Positions 618 through 63,312 of a stretch of DNA of 64,000 bases are shown in pieces; the first letter of the stretch is position 1; the number at the start of each line of letters is the position of its first letter. Under the pieces are notes generated by a model that was not told the DNA's origin, did no database searches, and was given only the letters and a program-made list of their open reading frames with translations. The translations under genes were made by a program, and so were the position numbers. Source of the stretch: a bacterium (GTDB taxonomy: Bacteria > Patescibacteriota > UBA1384 > VFKW01); contig JAUSIS010000004.1 in assembly GCA_030647355.1 (NCBI GenBank), positions 68,066 to 132,065 on the forward strand, read 5' to 3'.

Positions 618-1618
618 ATGAGAAAGGTTCGTTTTTTGTCTACAATTTTAATGACGGTGTTAATTTCGACACAAATCGGTACAGCTCAAGCTACCACAAT
701 AAACGACCTGCAGGCTAAGAAAAATATTGCTGCCCAGAAAGCTAATGAATTAGAGATGCAAGCCCAAAAGAAAGCATCCCAAGCGGATAGCCTATCAACT
801 ATGGTTGCCAAAATAGCTGCGGATATTTCCACGTTGGAGGCGAAAATCAGGCAAAACCAATCCAGCTTATCAAATACTCGGAAAAACATTAACCAAACAG
901 AAAAATTGATTGAAGAAAAGCAAGTAAGTCTTGAGGAAAGTCCAAACAAGAGTTAGAGGATAAGAAATCCGGCCTAGAAAAATATTATAACGAATTAGCT
1001 AACCTTAAAAAAGAACTGGAAATTCAAAACACCGGGCTTCAAGAGCAAAAATCCGGTCAGCAAAGGCTCCTATCGGATGCCACTGCTGAGATGAAAAGAT
1101 TGCAGAATCAAGCTGCCGAACAAAGCCGTATTGAGGATCAAGTGGAAGCACAAATCAAAGCCGAATTTGCCAGATTGACTAGTGGCGGAAGTTCAGGCAA
1201 GGTAACTGGTACCAAAGTTCAGGAAGGCGACATTATCGGCTATGAGGGTAGTACGGGTAATTCCAGTGGTGCGCATGTTCATTTCAAAGTAAGAGACAAC
1301 GGAACGGCTAAAAATCCCCGTAATTACTCAAGTCTCCTGCGCTGGCCTCTGGATAAATTTACTATTACCCAAGAATTTGGCTTGACTGAATACGCAAAGC
1401 AAAAAAGCGGCAATAGTTGCACCTATGGCGGAACCTGGCCCAATAATTGCGCCATTCATACCGGCATAGATGTCGCCGACTTACTGGGCGCTCCGGTGCA
1501 TGCCGCCGACGATGGAGATATCATTCTTGATAAATACTATGGAGGTTACGGTAATGCAGTCATAATCGATCATGGCGGCAATATCTATAGTCTTTACGGG
1601 CACATGTTAGCTAAGTAA
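618..1618 (+). pseudogene. M23/LytM family metallopeptidase with N-terminal signal and coiled-coil, apparent single-base frameshift near 935-950 (618..956 and 944..1618 are the same gene)
   Basis: The second frame reads without a stop from 935 (KQELEDKKSGLEKYYNELANLKKELEIQ...). It continues the coiled coil into the catalytic domain, which has HVHFKV (HxH) and IDHGG (Hx3D) M23 motifs. The first frame terminates at TAG 954-956. Confidence 0.55.
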
Positions 1619-2607: not shown

Positions 2608-3717
2608 ATGTTTTTTATTGCCATAAAAAATCTATTTCAAGAAAAAACTAAATTAGCCATCAGTGTTGGCGGCGTCGCTTTTGCAGTACTTTTAATTATT
2701 ATTATCAACGGTGTCTATCAGGGCTTCAATGAAAAAATGGGCGCCTACCCCAAAAGCATCCCGGCCGACCTTTGGGTAGAGCAAAAAGGTGTCGGAGATA
2801 TGTACCATACGCTCTCTTTTTTACCCGATAATTTAGAATGGCAGTTTCTTAATATCGATGGCGTGCAAAGCGCAGATAAATATCTCGGCAAACAAGTAAT
2901 GTTTGATTTAAAAGGCAAAGATCAAACTCTCTTTATCGTCGGCATAGATAATAGCGGTGCGACCAAGCCATATAAAATGGTGGAAGGCAGTTGGCAAAAC
3001 TTACAGAATGGTCAAATAATTATCGACAAAACGATGGCCAAAGAGGCAAAGCTGAACATTGGCGATACTTTCGATATGAACGGCCAGACTTTAGAAGTCA
3101 GAGGTATTGCAAGTGGCGGAAATGTCATCTCTTTCAAATACGCTTATGTGACTTATGACCAGGCAAAAAACATGTTTAACTTAGGCGACAAAGTAAACTT
3201 TTATCTTCTAAAATTAAAATCAGGGAGCGATGTTTCGCAAGTAAAATCCGACATCGAAAGTAACATTCCTGAAGTTAAAGTTTTGACAAAAGACCAATTC
3301 GTCGATACCTCCCGTAAGGTGGTTACGGAAAGCTTCCTGCCGATTATTGCCGTCTTGGTTGCAATCGGTCTTCTTGTTGGCACCGCCGTAATCGGGCTGA
3401 CGACTTACTCGGCAACGATAGAAAAATCTCGTGAGTATGGAGTCATGAAGGCAATCGGACTGTCCAATAGCCAATTATCAAAAACGGTGATTATCCAATC
3501 CCTTGTTTCCGGCATCATAGGATATATTGTGGGTGCCATTCTTGCCTATGTTATCGGTTTTCTGTCGGAAAGTATCGTTTCCTCCTTTGTGACACAAATC
3601 CGCCCGATTGATTTACTTTGGGTTTTTGGGGCAACTATATTGATGTCCTTAATCGGAGCTTATATACCGATGAAACGAATTTCTTCTATTGATCCGGCTG
3701 AAGTATTTAAAAGTTAG
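2608..3717 (+). CDS. ABC transporter permease, FtsX/MacB-like
   Basis: N-terminal TM, a large periplasmic domain and a C-terminal 3-TM FtsX-like region. Followed by an ATPase gene. sigma70-like promoter and RBS upstream. Confidence 0.75.
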   Translation: MFFIAIKNLFQEKTKLAISVGGVAFAVLLIIIINGVYQGFNEKMGAYPKSIPADLWVEQKGVGDMYHTLSFLPDNLEWQFLNIDGVQSADKYLGKQVMFDLKGKDQTLFIVGIDNSGATKPYKMVEGSWQNLQNGQIIIDKTMAKEAKLNIGDTFDMNGQTLEVRGIASGGNVISFKYAYVTYDQAKNMFNLGDKVNFYLLKLKSGSDVSQVKSDIESNIPEVKVLTKDQFVDTSRKVVTESFLPIIAVLVAIGLLVGTAVIGLTTYSATIEKSREYGVMKAIGLSNSQLSKTVIIQSLVSGIIGYIVGAILAYVIGFLSESIVSSFVTQIRPIDLLWVFGATILMSLIGAYIPMKRISSIDPAEVFKS

Positions 3718-5096: not shown

Positions 5097-7481
5097 GTGA
5101 TATACAACAACAAACAAAGAAAACATTGTACCTGCGAAGAAAGTTGTCTTTGCTGCCAAGCGGAAGAACTAACAGTATCTAGCGGCAGTGACATAGAGGC
5201 GAAGCAATATGAGTATAATTTATCTCATAAACTAAAGCATGCAAGACATGACCATGAGGCAATGGCTATGGAAGGCCATGAGATGAAGCTCTACGAGTGT
5301 CCAGAATGCGGCTTGCAGTTTGAAGACGAGAAATGGGCAAAAAGGTGCGAGGAATGGTGTAAAAAACATCATAGCTGCAATCTAGAGATTACAAGCCACG
5401 CTGTAGATAAAAATAAAATAAATCAACCGAATCATCTTGAACATACCGGCCATGACATGTCCAAGATGAGCCACATGGACCATGAAGCGGCCATGATCAA
5501 TCCCATGATGGCCAAAGAAATGGAAGAGGATATGCGCCGCCGTTTTTGGATTGCTTTCATTCTGACTATCCCTATCTTCCTTCTGTCCCCTGTCGGCACA
5601 TTTTTACTAAAAATAAGTCTCCCAAACTCATTCCCAACCAATTGGATTCTTTTTATACTCTCAACCCCTGTGGTTTTCTGGTCGGGCTCTATCTTTATAA
5701 TAGGGACCTATTATTCTTTGAAAAACAAAAAACTTAACATGTCGGTGCTTATTGCCACCGGCGTTTTGACTTCTTATATATTCAGCGTCTATCTGACTAT
5801 AATCGGCAGCTCGGACGTTTTCTATGAAGCGGCAGCCATGCTGGTTACCTTTGTGCTCTTCGGCCACTGGATGGAAATGCGTTCCCGCCGTGGTACTTCA
5901 GATTCTTTGCGCGCCCTCTTTGATCTTGTTCCTCCCAAAGCCAATATTATCCGAGATGGCAAAGAAATTAGTATTCCGAGTGCCGAAATAATGGGAGGTA
6001 ATATTGTCATCCTTCGCCCAGGGGATAAAATACCTGTTGACGGTGATGTCACGGAAGGTGAAACTTCCATCGATGAATCGCTTGTCACCGGCGAATCTAT
6101 TCCTGTTACCAAAAAGATCGGAGATAAAGTAATCGGCGGATCGGTTAATCAAACCGGAAGCGTTCAGTATAGAGCAACTAAGGTCGGCTCGGATACTGTC
6201 CTTGCCCAAATTATTAAACTGGTCGAAACCGCCCAGAATTCCAAAGCGCCCGGTCAACGCATTGCCGATCGAGCTGCTGCCTGGTTGGTCATTCTAGCTA
6301 TAGGTGCCGGCATAGCTACATTTCTTGGTTGGTATGTTATTGCTGGAGTTACTCTACTTACCGCTTTAACCTTTGCCGTATCAGCTGTTGTGATCGCTTG
6401 TCCTGATGCCTTAGGATTAGCGACTCCCACTGCCGTAGCTGTTGGTACCGGTATTGGTGCCAAACATAATATCCTAATAAAAGACGCCGCCACACTGGAA
6501 AACACTTCTCGGTTACAAGTTATTGTACTGGACAAAACCGGCACCTTAACCCTCGGCAAACCGAAAGTTACCGATATTATTCCAGCTAAAGGTTCGACCA
6601 TCTACGAGATATTGAGTCTGACTGCATCAGGTGAAGCTAAGTCCGGCCATCCCTTAAGCCAAGCTGTAATAGAGGAAACCAAAAAGCGAAATATTTCCTA
6701 CGAGGAAAAAGTTGAAAAGTTTTCTTCTCTTGCCGGTTTAGGTATAGAAGCCGTAGTTGGAGGTAAACATATTTTAGTTGGGACAATTAGATTAATGAAT
6801 GAGCAGAAAATTGATATTCAACCGGTTGAGGCAGATATTGAGCGATTACTTAATGAAGGCAAGACTTTAATGATCCTTGCCATTGACGGAAAAGTAGCCG
6901 GCGTTGTTGCCGCCGCTGATGTCTTACGCCCCACCGCAAAAAGCGCAATTAGCAAGCTAAAGGAAATGGGACTCGAGACGGCCATGATTACAGGTGATAA
7001 CAGAAAAACTGCCGAAGCAATCGGTAAACAGCTTGGCATCGATCGTATATTTGCCGAAGTACTTCCTCGAGATAAGGCAGATTATGTTAAGAAATTACAA
7101 GGTGAGGGAAAATTTGTCGCTATGGTCGGAGATGGTATCAATGATGCTCCCGCACTAGCACAGGCCGATATCGGCATTGCTATTGGAGCCGGCACGGATG
7201 TAGCAATTGAAACCGGAAATATCGTACTTATGAAATCTGACCCTTATGATATTGTGAGGGCTATGCAGTTAAGCCGGGCAACTGTCGGTAAGATGAAGCA
7301 AAATCTCTTTTGGGCATCAATCTATAACATTCTTGCCATCCCTGTAGCTGCCGGCGTTTTTTATACTTCTCTCGGGATATCCTTAAGACCGGAAATCTCC
7401 GCTCTACTAATGTCAGCATCTTCGATTATAGTGGCCACCAACGCGGTGCTTCTAAAAAGAGTGGAACCCAAGCTCAAATGA
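5097..7481 (+). CDS. heavy-metal translocating P1B-type ATPase with Cys/His/Met-rich N-terminus (no classical MxCxxC HMA domain)
   Basis: DKTGTLT, GDGINDAP and TGES motifs. The TM6 motif reads CPD. GTG start at 5097 with GGAGGA RBS; the ORF track uses TTG at 5082. Confidence 0.9.
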   Translation: MIYNNKQRKHCTCEESCLCCQAEELTVSSGSDIEAKQYEYNLSHKLKHARHDHEAMAMEGHEMKLYECPECGLQFEDEKWAKRCEEWCKKHHSCNLEITSHAVDKNKINQPNHLEHTGHDMSKMSHMDHEAAMINPMMAKEMEEDMRRRFWIAFILTIPIFLLSPVGTFLLKISLPNSFPTNWILFILSTPVVFWSGSIFIIGTYYSLKNKKLNMSVLIATGVLTSYIFSVYLTIIGSSDVFYEAAAMLVTFVLFGHWMEMRSRRGTSDSLRALFDLVPPKANIIRDGKEISIPSAEIMGGNIVILRPGDKIPVDGDVTEGETSIDESLVTGESIPVTKKIGDKVIGGSVNQTGSVQYRATKVGSDTVLAQIIKLVETAQNSKAPGQRIADRAAAWLVILAIGAGIATFLGWYVIAGVTLLTALTFAVSAVVIACPDALGLATPTAVAVGTGIGAKHNILIKDAATLENTSRLQVIVLDKTGTLTLGKPKVTDIIPAKGSTIYEILSLTASGEAKSGHPLSQAVIEETKKRNISYEEKVEKFSSLAGLGIEAVVGGKHILVGTIRLMNEQKIDIQPVEADIERLLNEGKTLMILAIDGKVAGVVAAADVLRPTAKSAISKLKEMGLETAMITGDNRKTAEAIGKQLGIDRIFAEVLPRDKADYVKKLQGEGKFVAMVGDGINDAPALAQADIGIAIGAGTDVAIETGNIVLMKSDPYDIVRAMQLSRATVGKMKQNLFWASIYNILAIPVAAGVFYTSLGISLRPEISALLMSASSIIVATNAVLLKRVEPKLK

Positions 7482-7537: not shown

Positions 7538-8551
7538 TTAATTGCCCTTATCGTCGAGGACTAGATTTGTGGGTTTTTGAGAAATGTAGGACTGGATATT
7601 TTCCAAGGTTGTCGAAAGAATGCGCATGAGCGCCTCCTGAGAGTTAAAAGCATTATGTGGGGTTACTATAACCTTGTCGTTTTTTATCAAGATGTTATTG
7701 GCGATATCAAGCAGGAGGCATTTTTTGGGAAATTGCTTGGAGAGGATTTGACGTTCTTCTTTGATATTACATTCCTCTTCCAGCACATCCAAACCAGCGC
7801 CGGCCAATTTTCCATCGTCCAAGGCATGAACAAGTGCTTCTGTGTCAATCAGGCCGCCACGGGAGGTATTGATCAAGTAAGCGCCTTTTTTCATAAGGTC
7901 GATTCTTTCTTTATTTATGAAATGATGAGTTTGTTGATTATCTGGCAGATGTAGTGAAATTATATCTGAGTTCTTTAGTAAATCCTCGATCGTTACGTAT
8001 TTTAGCCCGTAACGCTTAGTTAATTCTTCGTCTCGTTTGAGGTCGTAACCTAAAATATCCATTTCAAAACCATGGGCCATCCGTACAACATGCTTACCAA
8101 TATGACCTGTTCCAACTAGCCCCAGTGTTTTGCCTTTCAAGTCAAAGCCGCGCAAGTCATCCAAAGAAAAATCTCCCCGACGCACTTTCTCTACGGACGA
8201 GATGATCCGCCTTGAAAGTGTTAAAATCAAGGCAAAACAATGTTCGGCAACAGTGTTTTCGCCGTAGGTTGGCACATTAGAAACAATGATATTTTTTTCC
8301 TTGCAGAGATTAAGATCAATGTGATCAAAACCAGTTGAACGAGTAGCGATAAATTTCAGGTTCGGAATTTTAGCTAAAAGAGGTTCGTTGATTTTTGAAT
8401 AAATGAATGTTGAAAGGACTTCTACTTCTGACAAATTCTCATTAAAATCTACCGTCAAGGGAATGTCAAAGAAGCTAAGATCATGGCCAACGAGTTCTTT
8501 GCTGATAAAATCCTCTTCCCAATTCTCGAGCTCAAAAAAAGCAATTTTCAT
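7538..8551 (-). CDS. D-isomer-specific 2-hydroxyacid dehydrogenase (NAD-binding, D-LDH/PGDH family)
   Basis: GLVGTGHIGKHV Rossmann motif and family-wide similarity. AGGAGGG RBS 5 nt before the ATG at 8551. The longer track ORF has no RBS. Confidence 0.8.
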   Translation of the reverse strand: MKIAFFELENWEEDFISKELVGHDLSFFDIPLTVDFNENLSEVEVLSTFIYSKINEPLLAKIPNLKFIATRSTGFDHIDLNLCKEKNIIVSNVPTYGENTVAEHCFALILTLSRRIISSVEKVRRGDFSLDDLRGFDLKGKTLGLVGTGHIGKHVVRMAHGFEMDILGYDLKRDEELTKRYGLKYVTIEDLLKNSDIISLHLPDNQQTHHFINKERIDLMKKGAYLINTSRGGLIDTEALVHALDDGKLAGAGLDVLEEECNIKEERQILSKQFPKKCLLLDIANNILIKNDKVIVTPHNAFNSQEALMRILSTTLENIQSYISQKPTNLVLDDKGN

Positions 8552-8856: not shown

Positions 8857-10086
8857 ATGTATAATAATGTAATGCCGAGACCCCACAGGGGGCTAAGAAA
8901 CCGTGGGAAAACTTCTTCTCTAAGCAGCTCTCCCTTTTATTCTTCAAACGCAAATCGGGGAAGAAATAACTCAAGGCGACAAAGCGGTGAGAAAATTGAT
9001 ATCTCGAGATTTATTCAAAAAGCCTCGGATCAAACCAATGCAGTCGCAGAAGAAATCGTAAATTCTTTTGCTGATTTTGGATTTGTTTCGGAACTGGAGA
9101 GAAATTTAAAGGTTAAAAATTATTCTATTCCAACTCCAATCCAAGACCAATCAATCAATCATATTTTGGAAGGGCGGGATATAATCGCCTTAGCCAATAC
9201 CGGCACCGGTAAAACCGGCGCATTCTTACTGCCGATGATAAACAAAGCTTTCAAAGACAATGACCAAAAGGTTTTAATTATCACACCTACACGAGAATTA
9301 GCTTTGCAGATTGCAGATGAATTTCATTGCTTCTCATTTGGGATGAGGATTTTTTCCGCCTTATGCATCGGTGGTACACCGATCGGTAAGCAAATAGCAA
9401 ATTTGAGACGAAATCCGCAATTTGTAATCGGAACACCCGGAAGGTTGCAAGATTTACATAAAAGAAACTTAATTAATTACAATCAATTTCAAAATATCGT
9501 GCTGGATGAAGTAGATCGCATGTTAGATATGGGTTTTATCAGCGAAATTAGAGATATTTTGAGCCAATTTCCTAAAGTTCGACAATCGTTGTTTTTCTCA
9601 GCGACTATGCCCCCAAAAATTAGAGCTCTTGCTGAAGAATTTTTGCAATATCCCATCACGGTTTCCATCAATGCCGGGAAAACAGCCCAAAATGTTGAGC
9701 AGGATATTATAAGAGTGGGTGAGGGTGAAAAATTTGACAAGCTCCAAAATATATTGTCCCAGCCGGATTTCCAAAAAGTGCTCATCTTCAGCGAAACCAA
9801 GCACGGCGTGGAAAAATTGAAAACAAATCTGGTAAATAGCGGTTTCAGCGCTGAATCTATCCATGGTGATAAGCGCCAAGGACAAAGACAGCGCGCCTTA
9901 AATCAGTTCAAAAACAATGAAGTTACTATCCTTGTAGCAACGGACGTTGCGGCTCGCGGACTTGATATTAAAGATATTTCTCACGTAATCAATTACACAA
10001 TTCCCGAGACTTATGACGATTATATACACAGAATTGGAAGAACCGGCCGCGCTAACAAAACTGGCATAGCTCTGACCTTTGTCTAA
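8857..10086 (+). CDS. DEAD-box ATP-dependent RNA helicase (DEVD variant of motif II) with Arg/Ser-rich N-terminal extension
   Basis: ANTGTGKT, DEVD, SAT and HRIGRTGR motifs. RBS AAGGAAAG. A roughly 150-nt 5' leader follows a TTGACT promoter. Confidence 0.85.
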   Translation: MYNNVMPRPHRGLRNRGKTSSLSSSPFYSSNANRGRNNSRRQSGEKIDISRFIQKASDQTNAVAEEIVNSFADFGFVSELERNLKVKNYSIPTPIQDQSINHILEGRDIIALANTGTGKTGAFLLPMINKAFKDNDQKVLIITPTRELALQIADEFHCFSFGMRIFSALCIGGTPIGKQIANLRRNPQFVIGTPGRLQDLHKRNLINYNQFQNIVLDEVDRMLDMGFISEIRDILSQFPKVRQSLFFSATMPPKIRALAEEFLQYPITVSINAGKTAQNVEQDIIRVGEGEKFDKLQNILSQPDFQKVLIFSETKHGVEKLKTNLVNSGFSAESIHGDKRQGQRQRALNQFKNNEVTILVATDVAARGLDIKDISHVINYTIPETYDDYIHRIGRTGRANKTGIALTFV

Positions 10087-15251: not shown

Positions 15252-16817
15252 TTATTTATGGATATAAACCGGGATGCCGACTTCTGCCCAATTATAGACT
15301 TCTTGAGCAGGTCCTACTGATAATCTCACACATCCATGAGACACTGCATAGCCGATGTCGCCAATGCCTTCTTTATAACCAGTCCTCATATCGACTGGCA
15401 GTTCATGGATACCTTGCCAAGCGCCTGTGCGATCTTGGGCGAAAGCCATCCACCACGGCATTATCCACGGAAATGATTTTGGTTTCGGCGCCTTATTTTT
15501 AATTTTAAAGACGCCTTCACGTGTTGGAGTCGACCGTTTGCCAGAGGAAATTCTAAATTCCTTTACTTTATTTTGCCCCTCCCAAAGATACATAGTTTGA
15601 TTGGATAAATTCATCTCAATATACTTGCCCGGATACATGCCGGGTGTAAAGGGTGGTGCCATTGTTTTTGTGGCGAATGGTTTGGTGTCAACTTGCATCG
15701 CGATAGTGCGATTTTCAGAAAAAGCGTTGGCTGACGGAATAGCTATTGATTGGTCGAGTATTGAATTATTAGGGCTATTATTACTTGCCTGCGTAGGTGT
15801 TGGAGTGAAAATGGCTAAGATATCGCTCGCGAGTTTGGTTCTGGCTAGAGACCTTCCATCTTTGCCCTCTTGCATAATACTGCCATCAATGGAGGAAATT
15901 CTTTTCTCAACCGGTTTAATATCTATTTTTTTGGCAATTGATGTTATGTCTTTAGTGACTGCCGCTTGATCAATACTGGGTGTAACTGTACCCGCTTTGG
16001 TTTCAAATTTTAACCATTTTATCATTCGATTTGCTGAAAAAGTATATTTTTTATCTTCAAAAACCAAATATATCGGGCTTTTGATCATTCCTTCAGCTTG
16101 GGTTTTTATAGCTCCTAGATCGGCTTCCTTATTCGAGGGCTCTAAACTTGATGCCTGAAAGGTCAGATGAAGTTCTTTCCAATTACTATCCAGTGCTTTT
16201 TGATTAAGACTGCTATAGAGCATTTTTTCCAAGACAATTTTATCAATTCCCACGCCGTATTCTTCTTTATTTATTACCAGCTGGTCCCCAGATACTGCTA
16301 TAGACGCATCTACTGGATTTTTATTTACTTCTCCAAGAATTTGAGAAAGATTGGAGTTAATTTTTTCTTTTTGGATAGTTAATATGGCAGGTTTTATAGT
16401 CTTTTTCTGGGTAATAATATCCCGAGCTAAGTATAAACCATCTTTAATAATGCTGCGGTTTCTCTGATTTTGAAATGTATCATTTAACACTTCACGCCAT
16501 TGGAAACTAATTCCCAGCTGTTCAAAATTAAAAGTATATTCTTTATCAGCCAGGGTAAGAAATAACTTTTTTTGGTCATCGGAGCCGAATTTCTTTTGTA
16601 GAATCTCTTTGGCTTGGGCTAATTCCATCCTTGACACGTCAACACCAGCAACGACTGTGTTGGGGAAAAAACGAGTTTTAAAATAATAGGCATAGGCTAC
16701 CGGGAAACTAGACAATACTAAAAGGAAAACCGAAATTAGTATGCCGGCAGTTATTTTTACATAATGCATTGTATTGGTTTGTTTTGCTTTTGAACTCACA
16801 ACTTTGCGACCCTCCAA
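15252..16817 (-). CDS. L,D-transpeptidase (YkuD/ErfK catalytic domain) with N-terminal TM anchor and large extracellular region
   Basis: C-terminal SHGCVRLS catalytic motif (His/Cys). Confidence 0.8.
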   Translation of the reverse strand: MEGRKVVSSKAKQTNTMHYVKITAGILISVFLLVLSSFPVAYAYYFKTRFFPNTVVAGVDVSRMELAQAKEILQKKFGSDDQKKLFLTLADKEYTFNFEQLGISFQWREVLNDTFQNQRNRSIIKDGLYLARDIITQKKTIKPAILTIQKEKINSNLSQILGEVNKNPVDASIAVSGDQLVINKEEYGVGIDKIVLEKMLYSSLNQKALDSNWKELHLTFQASSLEPSNKEADLGAIKTQAEGMIKSPIYLVFEDKKYTFSANRMIKWLKFETKAGTVTPSIDQAAVTKDITSIAKKIDIKPVEKRISSIDGSIMQEGKDGRSLARTKLASDILAIFTPTPTQASNNSPNNSILDQSIAIPSANAFSENRTIAMQVDTKPFATKTMAPPFTPGMYPGKYIEMNLSNQTMYLWEGQNKVKEFRISSGKRSTPTREGVFKIKNKAPKPKSFPWIMPWWMAFAQDRTGAWQGIHELPVDMRTGYKEGIGDIGYAVSHGCVRLSVGPAQEVYNWAEVGIPVYIHK

Positions 16818-17047
16818 TAGCTCTTTTTGTATTGTATGGTTTTTTTAAGTTCATCGCAAGTTTAATTCCTCTAGCAAAAAGTACAGGTTTATGTTAAAAT
16901 AATAGGCGTAAAAACGATAGACTTTGGGCGTGTAGTCCCGATGTCCCGACATCAAGTCGGGTATGCGGGATCCCGATCGGCAAAGCCGCATCGGGACTCG
17001 AGGGATAAGCGCTTCGAATATATTCGGAATAAAATAGTGTCCTATGT

Positions 17048-17119
17048 GGGCGTATAGCTCAATGGTAGAGCAACGCTCTTATAAGGCGTCGGTTCCAGGT
17101 TCGAATCCTGGTACGCCCA
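17048..17119 (+). tRNA. tRNA-Ile (anticodon UAU)
   Basis: Acceptor GGGCGUA/UACGCCC, D stem GCUC/GAGC, anticodon stem ACGCU/GGCGU with loop CUUAUAA, T arm CCAGG-UUCGAAU-CCUGG. Confidence 0.8.
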
Positions 17120-17308
17120 CATAGAACGTTCATTGCCGAATATCTGCGCCTAGCGAAGCGGCGCTAGATAAGGAAGATGTCGATGGTCCGAATCCATCCA
17201 CGCCCACTAATTTAAGGAAGATGTCTATAAAGAGATCAGACAGGGAACCCTTTAGGCTTGACAAGGGCTGTTTTTTGTGTTACAATATTATAATTTCAAG
17301 GAGTGGAA

Positions 17309-17881
17309 ATGCGGATCAAAAACATAAAAATCAATATAAAGAAAAGTCAAATAAGAAATATTAAGCGATGGTCTCTGACAGCTTTTGCGATTTCGCTTTT
17401 GTTAACTAGTTTATTTGTTCTCAATGCTTTTGCCAAAACTGAAACTCAAAGTTCAATAATCCTTAAGATGACAAATAAAGAGCGAGCTAGCCGTTCGTTG
17501 GAACCGCTTAGTGAAAATAGGATTTTAGAGAGAGCTGCTTATGCCAAAGCCAGAGATATGTTTGATAACCAGTATTTTGATCATATTTCGCCTCAAGGCA
17601 GAACGCCGTGGTATTTTATCAATGAAGCCGGCTATGATTATGCTTATGCAGGTGAAAATTTGGCGATTGATTTTGATGACATTACTTCTATCCAAACTGC
17701 CTGGATGAATAGTCCTTCTCACAGGGAAAATATTCTTAATTCCAGTTTTAAAGATTTAGGTGTGGTTTCTGTGACCGATCTATATAAAGGTAAGACTACT
17801 ACTATAACTGTGGAGATGTTTGGTAGGACAATGTTTGATACAGTAATTGACAAATTTCTATTGAGTTTTAGTAAAACTTGA
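17309..17881 (+). CDS. CAP (SCP/PR-1/YkwD-like) domain secreted protein
   Basis: GENLA and SPSHRENIL motifs. Signal/TM N-terminus. AAGGAG RBS 5 nt before the ATG at 17309. Confidence 0.75.
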   Translation: MRIKNIKINIKKSQIRNIKRWSLTAFAISLLLTSLFVLNAFAKTETQSSIILKMTNKERASRSLEPLSENRILERAAYAKARDMFDNQYFDHISPQGRTPWYFINEAGYDYAYAGENLAIDFDDITSIQTAWMNSPSHRENILNSSFKDLGVVSVTDLYKGKTTTITVEMFGRTMFDTVIDKFLLSFSKT

Positions 17882-20623: not shown

Positions 20624-20652
20624 TTGCTGGATAACCAGATACGTGGTATAAT
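20624..20652 (+). promoter_or_regulatory. sigma70-like promoter for ftsH (TTGCTG -17- TGGTATAAT extended -10)
   Basis: Spacing is 17 nt. About 17 nt precede the ftsH RBS. Confidence 0.35.
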
Positions 20653-20668
20653 CCAATTTGGAGGTCAG

Positions 20669-22477
20669 ATGAAAAACATACCTTATATTATTATAATTTT
20701 GATTATCGCTTCGGCGGTTTGGGGATTAGCTGGTTATCAAAAAAATCAGGAAGTTAAAAACGTTCCTATTTCTCAAATTTCTCGAGATGTTAAGAACCAT
20801 CAAGTTAAAGAAATTAATGTAGAGGGCAGTCGTGTAATTGCGACTCTCAAAAATAATAAAAAAGAAGCGGCGTACAAAGAAGAAGGGGCAGAGATCCAGA
20901 TATATGGGATTAATCCTAATGACGTGACTGTCAATGTTAAGAATCCGAACAGCGGAGGGGCATTGATGAGTTTCCTATATTTGGGACTGCCAATTATATT
21001 GTTCGTTGTACTCTTCTATATAATGTTCAGACAAGCTCGGTCGGGAAATACGCAGGCAATGTCCTTTGGTAAAAGTACCGCTCGATTATTCAGCGGTAGT
21101 AAACAGGTTACATTTAATGACATAGCCGGTTTAATTGAGCCCAAACAAGAGCTTCTAGAGATCGTGGAATTCCTGAAGCAACCGGATAAGTTTCATAAGT
21201 TGGGAGCCGAGATTCCTAAGGGGGTATTGCTTTTCGGTCCGGCGGGAGTTGGTAAAACACTACTTGCCAAAGCCGTGGCAGGAGAAGCCGGCGTACCTTT
21301 TTACAGTCTTTCAGCTTCGGAATTTGTAGAGATGTTCGTTGGAGTGGGAGCTTCTCGGGTGCGCGATTTGTTCCAGAAAGCCAAGCGTAATGCTCCTTGT
21401 GTGATCTTTATTGATGAACTTGATGCAATTGGAAGACAGCGAGGTACTGGTCTGGGGGGAAGCCATGACGAGCGCGAACAGACACTTAACCAAATCTTAG
21501 TTGAGATGGATGGGTTTGAAACAGATTCCCGGGTTATAGTTTTGGCCGCTACTAACCGACCGGATGTTTTGGATCCGGCACTGCTTAGACCCGGCCGTTT
21601 CGACCGTAAAGTGGTCCTTGATCTTCCTGATGTTAAAGAGAGGGAGGCGATACTAATAGTTCATGGCCGAAACAAACCTTTAGCTAAAGCTGTAGATCTT
21701 AAGAAAATTGCTCAAGCCACACCCGGATTGTCCGGCGCTGATCTTAAGAATATTATGAACGAAGCGGCTATCTTAGCGGCTCAATCGAATGAGAAAGAAA
21801 TTAGGCAAAGTGATTTGGATAGTTCTATTGAGAAGACAGTGCTGGGGCCTGAGCGTAAATCGCATGTGATGAACCAGGAAGAGAAAAAGATAGCGGCGTA
21901 TCATGAAGCAGGCCATGCGGTTGTGGGACGATTTCTGCCGAATACCGATCCAATCCATAAAGTTTCCGTAGTATCGCGGGGTATGGCGCTTGGCTACACT
22001 TGGAGTTTACCAACCGAGGATAAACGTTTATACTCCAAGAGTAAATTTGAAGATGAAATTGCCCAATTACTGGGCGGACGCGCCAGTGAAGAGACATTTT
22101 TCAAGGAGATAACTACCGGAGCACAAAACGATGTTAAACGAGCTACCAAGATCGCTAGAGAAATGGTGACAATTTACGGTATGAGCGATGTCGGGCCGAT
22201 TTCTTTGGGTGATCGCGATGAATTGGTCTTTCTGGGTCGGGAGCTAGGAGAGCACAAGAATTATTCCGAACAACTCTCGGCTTCAGTTGATAGGGCAATT
22301 ATTAAATTCATGGAAGACGGTGAATTAAAAGCCAAAGATGTGATCAGTAAACACAGAGTCATTTTAGAAAATCTCGCTAAGCATTTGGTCGAGAAAGAGA
22401 CTATTGAGGGCGAGGAGCTGGAGAAAATATTTACTAATGGCGGTAAGGGTAAAACAGCATTGAAACCTACTGGATAA
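20669..22477 (+). CDS. ftsH: ATP-dependent zinc metalloprotease FtsH
   Basis: N-terminal 2-TM region. AAA+ Walker A GPAGVGKT and Walker [19 protein letters not shown] zinc motif. GGAGG RBS 4 nt before the ATG at 20669. Confidence 0.95.
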
Positions 22478-62948: not shown

Positions 62949-62975
62949 AAGGTTCCAGACCCAGCTGTCCCGCCA
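62949..62975 (+). repeat. 27-nt repeat copy C (AAGGTTCCAGACCCAGCTGTCCCGCCA; ATG becomes CTG)
   Basis: See copy A. Confidence 0.75.
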
Positions 62976-63060
62976 TTCGACTCGCTTTGCTCGCTCATGG
63001 TCTTCGACCAGAGAGCAAACGAGGCGAATGCCCTGAGTTTATCGAAGGGCTGAAAATGAT

Positions 63061-63312
63061 ATGAATTATTTTACATACATTATTCTTTGCGACAATAATA
63101 AATATTATATCGGTCATTCATCTGATGTTGATCGGAGATTTGAACGACATTTCCACAAAAACGGTGCAAAATTTACTGCCCAAAATGTACCGGTGAAGAT
63201 TTTATGGAAACAAGAATTTAATACCGAAATCGAAGCGATTAGACGAGAAAAACAAATTAAGGGTTGGAATAGAGCTAAGAAAGAGAATTTAATTAAAGGA
63301 GTTTGGCAATGA
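63061..63312 (+). CDS. GIY-YIG nuclease superfamily protein (stand-alone, YhbQ/UPF0213-like)
   Basis: YFTYIILCDNNKYYIGHSSDVDRRFERH contains GIY...YIG and the conserved Arg/His. Confidence 0.75.
   Translation: MNYFTYIILCDNNKYYIGHSSDVDRRFERHFHKNGAKFTAQNVPVKILWKQEFNTEIEAIRREKQIKGWNRAKKENLIKGVWQ

Follow-up and report, generated by a model that had tools for sequence, protein, structure and literature searches.

Between positions 16926 and 17206 of the 64,000-nucleotide (nt) stretch of DNA analysed here (the window; contig JAUSIS010000004.1, Patescibacteriota), a complete gene for the isoleucine transfer RNA with anticodon UAU, tRNA-Ile(UAU), is enclosed by two outer pieces that resemble the ends of a second tRNA. 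Comparison with orthologous intergenic regions shows these outer halves to be, as judged by sequence, both ends, still in place, of the probably ancestral tRNA-Ile(UAU) gene of the clade, an allele termed type N. The locus is probably the scar of a gene replacement, in which inserted DNA with its own tRNA-Ile(UAU) took the place of the resident type-N gene and left the ends of that gene standing on either side. An earlier reading of the window (the original prediction) had listed a pseudo-tRNA disrupted by a tRNA-Ile(UAU) unit among its explanations and had proposed a comparison with orthologous intergenic regions; that comparison identifies the outer pieces as ends of the type-N tRNA that relatives have at this very site, in agreement with this explanation.

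Ends of the type-N gene around a complete tRNA-Ile(UAU)

The comparison set consisted of the loci with the YkuD gene, tRNA-Ile(UAU) and the CAP gene in seven related Patescibacteria genomes, located via both flanking proteins; the closest YkuD relative (P0008, 62% identity) was left out of the DNA comparison. In the window the locus is flanked by an L,D-transpeptidase (YkuD) gene on the minus strand and a CAP-domain protein gene on the plus strand. A tRNA-Ile(UAU) lies between the YkuD and CAP genes in every one of the seven syntenic loci, whose YkuD proteins are 40–54% identical to that of the window.

The type-N tRNA-Ile(UAU) of L018, L019 and L020 reads GGGCGTGTAG-CTCAGCGGTTAGAGCGCTTCTCTT-ATAAGGAAGATGTCGATGGTCCGAATCCATCCACGCCCA. 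Its nt 1–10 in all three genomes are matched at 10 of 10 positions by window positions 16926–16935 (GGGCGTGTAG), the segment that the original prediction had described as a mimic of a tRNA 5' end. Positions 17168–17206 match nt 35–73 of the L018 and L019 tRNA (39/39), a span comprising the second anticodon base, the 3' strand of the anticodon stem, the variable loop, the T arm, the 3' acceptor strand and the discriminator A. Together, the relic ends are identical to the L018 tRNA over 49 of 49 nt. In L018 the tRNA at this site, GGGCGTGTAGCTCAGCGGTTAGAGCGCTTCTCTTATAAGGAAGATGTCGATGGTCCGAATCCATCCACGCCCA, is the single type-N copy; the L019 version is the same, the L020 version has two T-loop differences, and both L019 and L020 contain a partial upstream copy besides the intact type-N tRNA. 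Nucleotides 11–34 of type N are missing in the window, with 232 nt (16936–17167) in their place.

The outer pieces are considered to be in place because the 5' piece lies behind a conserved promoter and the 3' piece before a conserved spacer. The promoter-like element, TTTATGTTAAAAT, aligns with the tatgNtaaaat motif of L024, L025, L018, L019, L083 and L080, which in these relatives precedes the first tRNA 5' end by 17–50 nt; a strict consensus promoter scan did not call the element at 16888–16900. At its other side, the 3' relic runs directly into a spacer and a CAP-gene promoter orthologous to those of the relatives, the promoter lying outside the tRNA scar and setting its right-hand limit. 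An orthologous relic is indicated both by the identity to the L018 and L019 tRNA and by the orthologous promoter and spacer that flank it. The 13-nt direct repeat TAAGGAAGATGTC, reported by the original prediction at 17169 and 17213, is present and is itself type-N sequence; its second copy lies 44 nt downstream of the first, in spacer sequence (17213–17228) orthologous to that of L083 and L019, which hold a decayed look-alike. The features of the locus, from left to right, are as follows.

16888–16900, plus strand: conserved promoter-like element TTTATGTTAAAAT (extended −10), 25 nt upstream of the 5' relic; a presumed promoter
16926–16935, plus strand: 5' relic, type-N nt 1–10 (5' acceptor strand, U8, A9 and G10)
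16936–16996, plus strand: GC-rich hairpin block, 61 nt, 62% GC, directly after G10
16997–17015, plus strand: possible decayed remnant of type-N nt 11–30, CTCGAGGGATAAGCGCTTC against CTCAGCGGTTAGAGCGCTTC; the evidence is weak
17015–17026, no strand assigned: palindrome CGAATATATTCG, its right part in a long-range pairing
17042–17047, plus strand: CTATGT, 5' arm of an acceptor-stem extension, with a perfect 6-base-pair (bp) match to its partner ACATAG at 17119–17124
17048–17119, plus strand: complete tRNA-Ile(UAU), allele type I (ARAGORN, Rfam), without encoded CCA
17120–17167, plus strand: right part of the insert, with a spacer, CCGAATAT (17136–17143) and the hairpin CTAGCG-AAGCGG-CGCTAG (17150–17167)
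17168–17206, plus strand: 3' relic, type-N nt 35–73, followed by the orthologous spacer
17213–17228, plus strand: third partial type-N copy, TAAGGAAGATGTCtAT (nt 36–51, 15/16), holding the second copy of the 13-nt repeat
17258–17286, plus strand: promoter of the CAP-domain gene (TTGACA, 17 nt, TACAAT), with 11/12 consensus matches and conserved in all syntenic loci

The sequence GATGG-TCCGAAT-CCATC-CACGCCC-A at 17182–17206 forms the T arm and 3' acceptor strand that had been predicted there. The 5' piece (16926–16935) pairs perfectly with 17199–17205, and the outer acceptor strand is fully complementary to the upstream GGGCGTG and not to GGGCGTA of the inner tRNA, again as first described. Two other early observations hold as sequence but take on a different meaning. 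The T-stem differences between outer piece and inner tRNA, read as compensatory changes, reflect a comparison of two alleles. At position 55 of the T-loop, U (as pseudouridine) is almost universal; the outer piece does have C55, although this is no sign of decay, as intact type-N tRNAs, in L018 (3752–3825) and L019 (3607–3680), normally have the T-loop TCCGAAT. The same T-loop is thus common to two non-sister genomes and the window relic (17187–17193); L020 has TTCAAAT.

The inner tRNA-Ile(UAU) is presumably the working gene. It matches RF00005 with 76.6 bits (threshold 29; E = 3.9e-17) over model positions 1–71 with the anticodon UAU, and is internally consistent, with an A7-U66 pair and matching acceptor, anticodon and T stems of its own. 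Its nt 8–43 are identical to the syntenic tRNA of L083–L085; it resembles the L080 (outgroup) tRNA, and over nt 21–48, the anticodon arm and variable loop, it matches L006 and L007. In bacteria without lysidine synthetase, tRNA-Ile(UAU) decodes AUA (PMC3575796).

That the outer pieces might be halves of a split or intron-containing tRNA, to be joined once the 232-nt insert is removed, was another of the early explanations and can be given practically no credence. Only the perfectly complementary acceptor strands and the intact T arm favour it. Joined, 16926–16935 and 17168–17206 amount to 49 nt, without the 3' D-arm strand and the 5' anticodon-stem strand, and breaks after nt 10 and before nt 35 do not define one intron site; no group I intron or other ribozyme was matched at E up to 10, and no relative has the nested form. 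A covariance-model search with relaxed settings, which the original prediction had also suggested, recovers one tRNA, with no second match at E up to 10, and ARAGORN makes no call for the outer pieces as a canonical tRNA with or without an intron.

Other identities were rejected as well. No RF00028 match (group I intron) was found in 16780–17320 at E up to 10; the model detects a real intron in L019 (8973–9234, plus strand; 86.9 bits, E = 4e-21), near the contig end. ARAGORN finds no tmRNA, and the outer stem has G3-C70, not G3:U70; large RNAs of the GOLLD and ROOL types were discarded on the basis of ARAGORN and Rfam searches.

The inserted DNA and its folding

The region 16920–17215 folds at −125.9 kcal/mol (z = −6.4) in a structure closed by the outer acceptor stem. 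The hairpin block is composed of TCCCGAT repeats and their complement, and 16934–16998 folds at −38.1 kcal/mol (z = −5.9), with 0 of 200 shuffles equally stable. The early description of the region as highly structured holds for the whole and for this block, but not for the right flank: the CTAGCG hairpin is present, whereas 17121–17206, which includes it, folds no better than shuffles (z = −0.56). Similarly, the 10-bp stem described in the block exists, between AGTCCCGATG (16934–16943) and CATCGGGACT (16989–16998, one base later than a naive count would place this strand), but its enclosing form is an alternative fold, the minimum-energy fold consisting of two side-by-side hairpin domains. 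No second copy of the hairpin block occurs in the window or in any fetched locus.

Further to the right, the palindrome CGAATATATTCG is present as predicted. In minimum-energy folds ATATTCGG (17020–17027) forms 8 bp with CCGAATAT (17136–17143), a long-range pairing around the inner tRNA. The acceptor stem of the latter is extended by 6 bp, compared with 0–1 bp in five other tRNAs of the window and the tRNA-Ile genes of six relatives.

These structures bear on the possibility of a functional nested RNA, in which the outer acceptor stem and T arm would form a minihelix that defines the ends of a transcript of ~280 nt or controls maturation of the inner tRNA. Such a function is highly unlikely. 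It would suit a minimum-energy fold with the outer acceptor stem as its closing helix and an intact outer T arm (z = −6.4), the 49/49 conservation of the relic ends, and the inner tRNA's unique 6-bp extension together with the 8-bp outer pairing. The nested form is, however, present in 0 of 7 syntenic relatives, so that there is neither covariation nor conservation; pairing is automatic where the pieces are opposite ends of what was once a single tRNA; maturation of the inner tRNA would sever the outer RNA; and no Rfam family is matched. Neither the nested form nor the hairpin block has a homologue in the seven syntenic loci or in any fetched sequence, and the region thereby failed as a conserved structured RNA. 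We infer that the outer pieces pair because of their shared origin, the comparison of loci having given no support for a function; the processing or regulatory structure among the early suggestions is accordingly left unsupported.

Probable replacement of the resident allele

In the favoured history, DNA with its own tRNA-Ile(UAU) would have entered the resident gene and destroyed it, the incoming tRNA copy would thereby have become indispensable, and the remainder of the incoming DNA would since have been deleted. At present, a single transcript from the conserved promoter near 16900 would cover the relic ends, the hairpins and the inner tRNA. RNase P, 3' processing and CCA addition, the last invoked because no CCA is encoded, would then free only the inner tRNA, which would decode AUA, and the relic ends and hairpins would be discarded as leader and trailer.

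Entry could have occurred by site-specific recombination at the anticodon-loop/variable-loop core TAAGGAAGATGTC, through a small element targeting the D arm after nt 10, or by illegitimate recombination. Remnants of an attachment (att) site, also suggested at first, are compatible with a 3' piece that starts in the anticodon loop and is partly repeated, but no integrase or element body accompanies them. The replacement appears to be recent on the scale of the clade: not one of the 49 nt in the relic ends has changed, whereas proteins encoded nearby share only about 50% identity from genome to genome; the alternative to recency is continuing constraint.

The history of the alleles was read from a rough neighbour-joining tree of YkuD proteins. 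Type N is likely to be the ancestral state, because the deepest branch (L020) and inner branches (L019 and L018) of this tree carry it. L083, which carries type I, is the sister of the type-N genome L018, and this placement implies a second, clean replacement. The tree thus indicates at least two replacements of type N, a clean one in L083 and one in the window that left the old ends standing. A third allele, type M, occurs in L024 and L025. In type M (L025 1095–1169, L079 1–68), nt 1–15, the T stem and the acceptor stem are as in type N, and the D loop and anticodon stem differ, the ends having been kept and the middle exchanged as in the relic pattern of the window.

Several points weigh against this history. 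The perfection of the relic ends could also reflect selection rather than recency, and the uneven decay, with perfect ends beside a degenerate remnant of nt 11–30, fits an older upstream pseudo-copy better. The 13-nt core, present at the right junction of the insert (17169), has no clear copy at the left one, and there are no integrase, phage or transposase genes near the locus. No relative of the non-tRNA parts of the insert was detected in the sequences searched, so neither a donor nor an element was identified. Finally, the reading covers 64 kilobases (kb), and an intact type-N copy elsewhere in the genome is possible.

An older pseudo-copy is the starting point of a tandem history, which is possible but rather unlikely. 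Its ancestor would have resembled L019, L020 or L024, with a promoter, a pseudo 5' half carrying hairpins after G10, a spacer and the type-N gene. The 5' piece would descend from the old pseudo 5' half and the 3' piece from the real gene, of which nt 1–34, together with the spacer, would have been swapped for the type-I unit; the complementarity of the ends would be inherited, not functional. In L019 and L020 a pseudo 5' half indeed lies directly behind the promoter, as it does in L024 plus L079 to judge by their contig ends, and in the L019 pseudo-copy a hairpin of 21 nt is inserted exactly after G10, the point at which the window has its 61-nt block. A tandem origin would also account for a degenerate nt 11–30 stretch beside a perfect 3' relic: 16997–17015 resembles type-N nt 11–30 (76–204 of 5000 shuffles score as high in local alignment, depending on the scoring scheme) and starts exactly at the end of the hairpin block, as in the L019 pseudo-copy. 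However, the left part of the window is not significantly similar to the L019 and L020 pseudo-copies with their TACAAGATACAT...AGCGTAACAAGAGAAG hairpin (about one third of shuffles score as high), the similarity of 17121–17167 to type-N nt 1–34 is not significant either (about 10–25% of shuffles), and the first 10 nt of the 5' piece are still perfect.

The surroundings of the locus are those of an ordinary Patescibacteria-type chromosome, which the window resembles, with ~40% GC. The neighbours are housekeeping genes in synteny with those of relatives and encode YkuD, CAP, a beta-CASP nuclease, a SLOG-domain protein, DivIC and FtsH; the tyrosine or serine recombinase gene of an integrase-mediated island is not among them. 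The same intergenic sequence was found in L023, an independent Logan assembly of another run, which rules out an assembly chimera or artefact.

A scan of a genome collection with a tRNA-Ile(UAU) pattern returned 17 loci, which were used as a comparison set and included neither a close relative nor a nested arrangement. A metagenome scan with a degenerate pattern, which also matched tRNA-Ile(GAU) of other phyla, returned 51 loci, all irrelevant to the lineage of the window and serving solely as a control. Three scans of viral contigs had no match and two had chance matches in coding genes only (L086, a helicase-like open reading frame (ORF); L087 and L088, a GC-rich phage gene), and a BLAST search of the locus against phage GenBank entries gave nothing beyond generic similarity to the tRNA itself. 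For the non-tRNA parts of the insert, no relative was found in the rest of the window, the 80-odd fetched loci, phage GenBank or IMG/VR. No GIY-YIG ORF is present in 16936–17167, and the 232-nt insert holds no phage genes.

In many Patescibacteria, as seen in L001, L005, L008, L009, L010 and L017, tRNA-Ile(UAU) comes directly after a gene with an FtsH-like C terminus (…KETIEREEFEKL…), and tRNA-Val(GAC) is often next in line; in the clade of the window, ftsH lies instead about 3.5 kb from tRNA-Ile(UAU) (20624–22477). Elsewhere in the window, an 89-nt tRNA-Pro(UGG) called by ARAGORN at 9303–9391 (plus strand) is a false positive, because it lies within a DEAD-box helicase-like frame (…TGKTGAFLLPM…TPTRELA…) and has no Rfam tRNA match.

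Recurrent 5'-end copies and known systems

Exact upstream copies of the first 10–13 nt of the tRNA are present at 5 of 24 tRNA-Ile(UAU) loci (L003, L006, L007, L019 and L020), and at none of 38 other predicted tRNAs in the same loci and none of 34 tRNA-Ile(GAU) loci of other phyla. In L006, L007 and L019 the prefix copy is followed by two GC-rich hairpins, as in the window. A search for 3' relics downstream in these five loci found none.

The most elaborate case is L003 (450–760, minus strand), in which an 11-nt direct repeat, GGGGCACGTAG (nt −1 to 10 of the tRNA-Ile(UAU)), flanks an insert of ~290 nt situated directly behind the tRNA promoter and followed by a complete tRNA-Ile(UAU). The insert consists of an 83-residue GIY-YIG ORF (Pfam E = 1.4e-17) within an 11-bp inverted repeat, TCCCTCACACA/TGTGTGAGGG, and its junction reads GTAG|TCCC, with 4 nt identical to those in the window. 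In L006 (3405–3492) and L007 (about 1162–1260, minus strand), a 12-nt exact copy of the 5' end, CGGCCCGTAGCT, lies 88–98 nt upstream of tRNA-Ile(UAU), overlaps the stop codon of the upstream ORF and precedes the two hairpins. In L019 (3681–3830), L020 (3688–3825) and L024 (1–45), all on the minus strand, a copy of tRNA nt 1–36 comes after the promoter and before the intact tRNA-Ile(UAU). Behind this copy, L019 and L020 have the conserved TACAAGATACAT...AGCGTAACAAGAGAAG, the 3' part of which pairs with the copied anticodon-stem strand; L019 and L020 align with a score of 105 against a shuffle mean of 25. The L024 contig ends inside the TACAAGATACAT...AGCGTAACAAGAGAAG segment, and L079, from the same sample, begins inside the full tRNA.

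These copies could be explained by a small selfish element specific to tRNA-Ile(UAU), which would insert after nt 10–12 behind the promoter and restore or replace the tRNA on its 3' side; we regard this as improbable. Its insertions would be transcribed from the strong tRNA promoter. The autonomous form, exemplified by L003, would encode a GIY-YIG nuclease, and the window, L006, L007 and L019 would hold hairpin-only remnants, the decayed, ORF-less copy in the window having brought a whole tRNA. The window would then be a captured intermediate of allele replacement and L083 (type I, sister to L018 with type N) the completed process. It is equally doubtful that Patescibacteria harbour a family of selfish insertions that carry the 5' end of a tRNA or a whole replacement tRNA, so that the host keeps AUA decoding. 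In favour of such an element are the prefix copies at 5 of 24 tRNA-Ile(UAU) loci and their absence at control tRNAs, the GC-rich hairpins behind each copy, the GIY-YIG ORF of L003 with the shared GTAG|TCCC junction, and the precedent of phage T4 SegB, a GIY-YIG nuclease that drives inheritance of a tRNA gene region (PMC2330249). Against it, neither an ORF nor a trace of a nuclease lies in the window insert, hairpin blocks do not resemble each other in sequence from locus to locus, and the sample is small and was chosen through tRNA-Ile(UAU); moreover, the other loci have the resident tRNA allele behind the insert and lack a 3' relic, the window differing on both counts. We also know of no mechanism by which a GIY-YIG enzyme would make 10–12-bp duplications, and this, too, counts against the element. 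Were the prefix copies and the L003 insert nonetheless the work of one mechanism, it would be a mirror image of the classical tRNA-targeting islands, inserting on the 5' side and using the tRNA promoter.

GIY-YIG ORFs and tRNA genes were also observed in other settings. An 83-residue GIY-YIG ORF (Pfam E = 3.3e-19) is encoded in the window at 63061–63312 (plus strand). The GC-rich stretch of ~90 nt before it (62960–63050) contains a 20–48-nt element (…GCTCGCTCATGGTCTTCGACCA…) shared with two sites in L007, just downstream of tRNA-Val and tRNA-Ile (E = 9e-6 and 4e-4). In L016, a metagenome-assembled genome of Saccharibacteria, two near-identical GIY-YIG cassettes (3200–3520 and 7560–7900, minus strand), each with a conserved leader of ~100 nt, lie immediately downstream of two different tRNA-Ser genes.

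Under gene replacement, the locus would record the in-place swap of an essential single-copy tRNA gene for another allele, with the old ends unmutated. Together with the clean replacement in L083, it suggests that tRNA-Ile(UAU) alleles turn over by insertion, not by point mutation, in these reduced genomes. For annotation, a tRNA-like acceptor/T-arm pair may be no more than what is left at either end of a dead gene, and a lineage may have an odd T-loop such as C55 as its normal state.

Among known systems, SegB of phage T4 is a free-standing GIY-YIG homing endonuclease in a tRNA gene cluster that promotes inheritance of the neighbouring tRNA region (PMC2330249). L003 is similar in having a GIY-YIG ORF between a 5' tRNA fragment and a full tRNA-Ile(UAU); the window insert, by contrast, has no ORF, and SegB homing makes no nested tRNA fragments. 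In the split tRNAs of the archaeon Nanoarchaeum equitans and the permuted tRNAs of the red alga Cyanidioschyzon, the halves add up to a whole cloverleaf, an archaeal-type splicing endonuclease joining them at a bulge-helix-bulge motif. The window has 5' and 3' tRNA portions apart in its DNA in the same manner, but lacks 24 nt of the tRNA, and its host is a bacterium. Bacteria of the candidate phyla radiation carry insertions within rRNA genes, some with homing endonuclease genes, and the rRNA is functional after their removal (PMC11270868). The same bacterial radiation thus tolerates insertions inside structural RNA genes, whereas the gene interrupted in the window lost essential parts and was replaced.

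Genomic islands and prophages in tRNA genes leave displaced tRNA fragments (Islander database, PMC4383910; PMC9897764). The working gene is then a chimera of host 5' and element 3' sequence, and only a 3' fragment is displaced, kilobases away and beside an integrase (PMC4383910, PMC9897764). Textbook att fragments of this kind were observed among the actinobacterial tRNA-Ile(GAU) loci: 3' halves in the actinobacteria-like contigs L033, L037, L039, L044, L047, L049, L050, L052, L062 and L068 begin at the anticodon loop after non-tRNA sequence, starting at the same position as the 3' relic of the window (for example, in L033, L037 and L051), and in L051 the intact gene and the fragment (6029–6067 and 7593–7631) are about 1.5 kb apart. 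The window shares with islands a partial tRNA copy that adjoins a working tRNA gene of the same identity, and a 3' fragment that starts in the anticodon loop, the classical crossover location. It differs in that the working tRNA is a wholly different allele rather than a chimera, and both ends of the old gene flank the new tRNA within 281 nt, with no integrase or island.

Mycobacteriophages with tRNA-dependent lysogeny destroy the resident tRNA gene and do not rebuild it (Guerrero-Bustamante and Hatfull 2024; PMC10865867); only ~10 bp are shared, and the integration, whose mechanism has been demonstrated, leaves a full prophage with its tyrosine integrase in place (PMC10865867). Once this has happened, the incoming tRNA is indispensable and other parts of the element may disappear. 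The window insert, at 232 nt, has no recombinase, prophage or repressor, and its core is not seen at the left junction. The resident gene of the window has nonetheless lost nt 11–34, a complete tRNA of matching isotype lies in the insert, and there is a short shared sequence, here the repeated 13-nt core. Displaced island tRNA fragments and tRNA-dependent lysogeny are the closest known counterparts of the locus.

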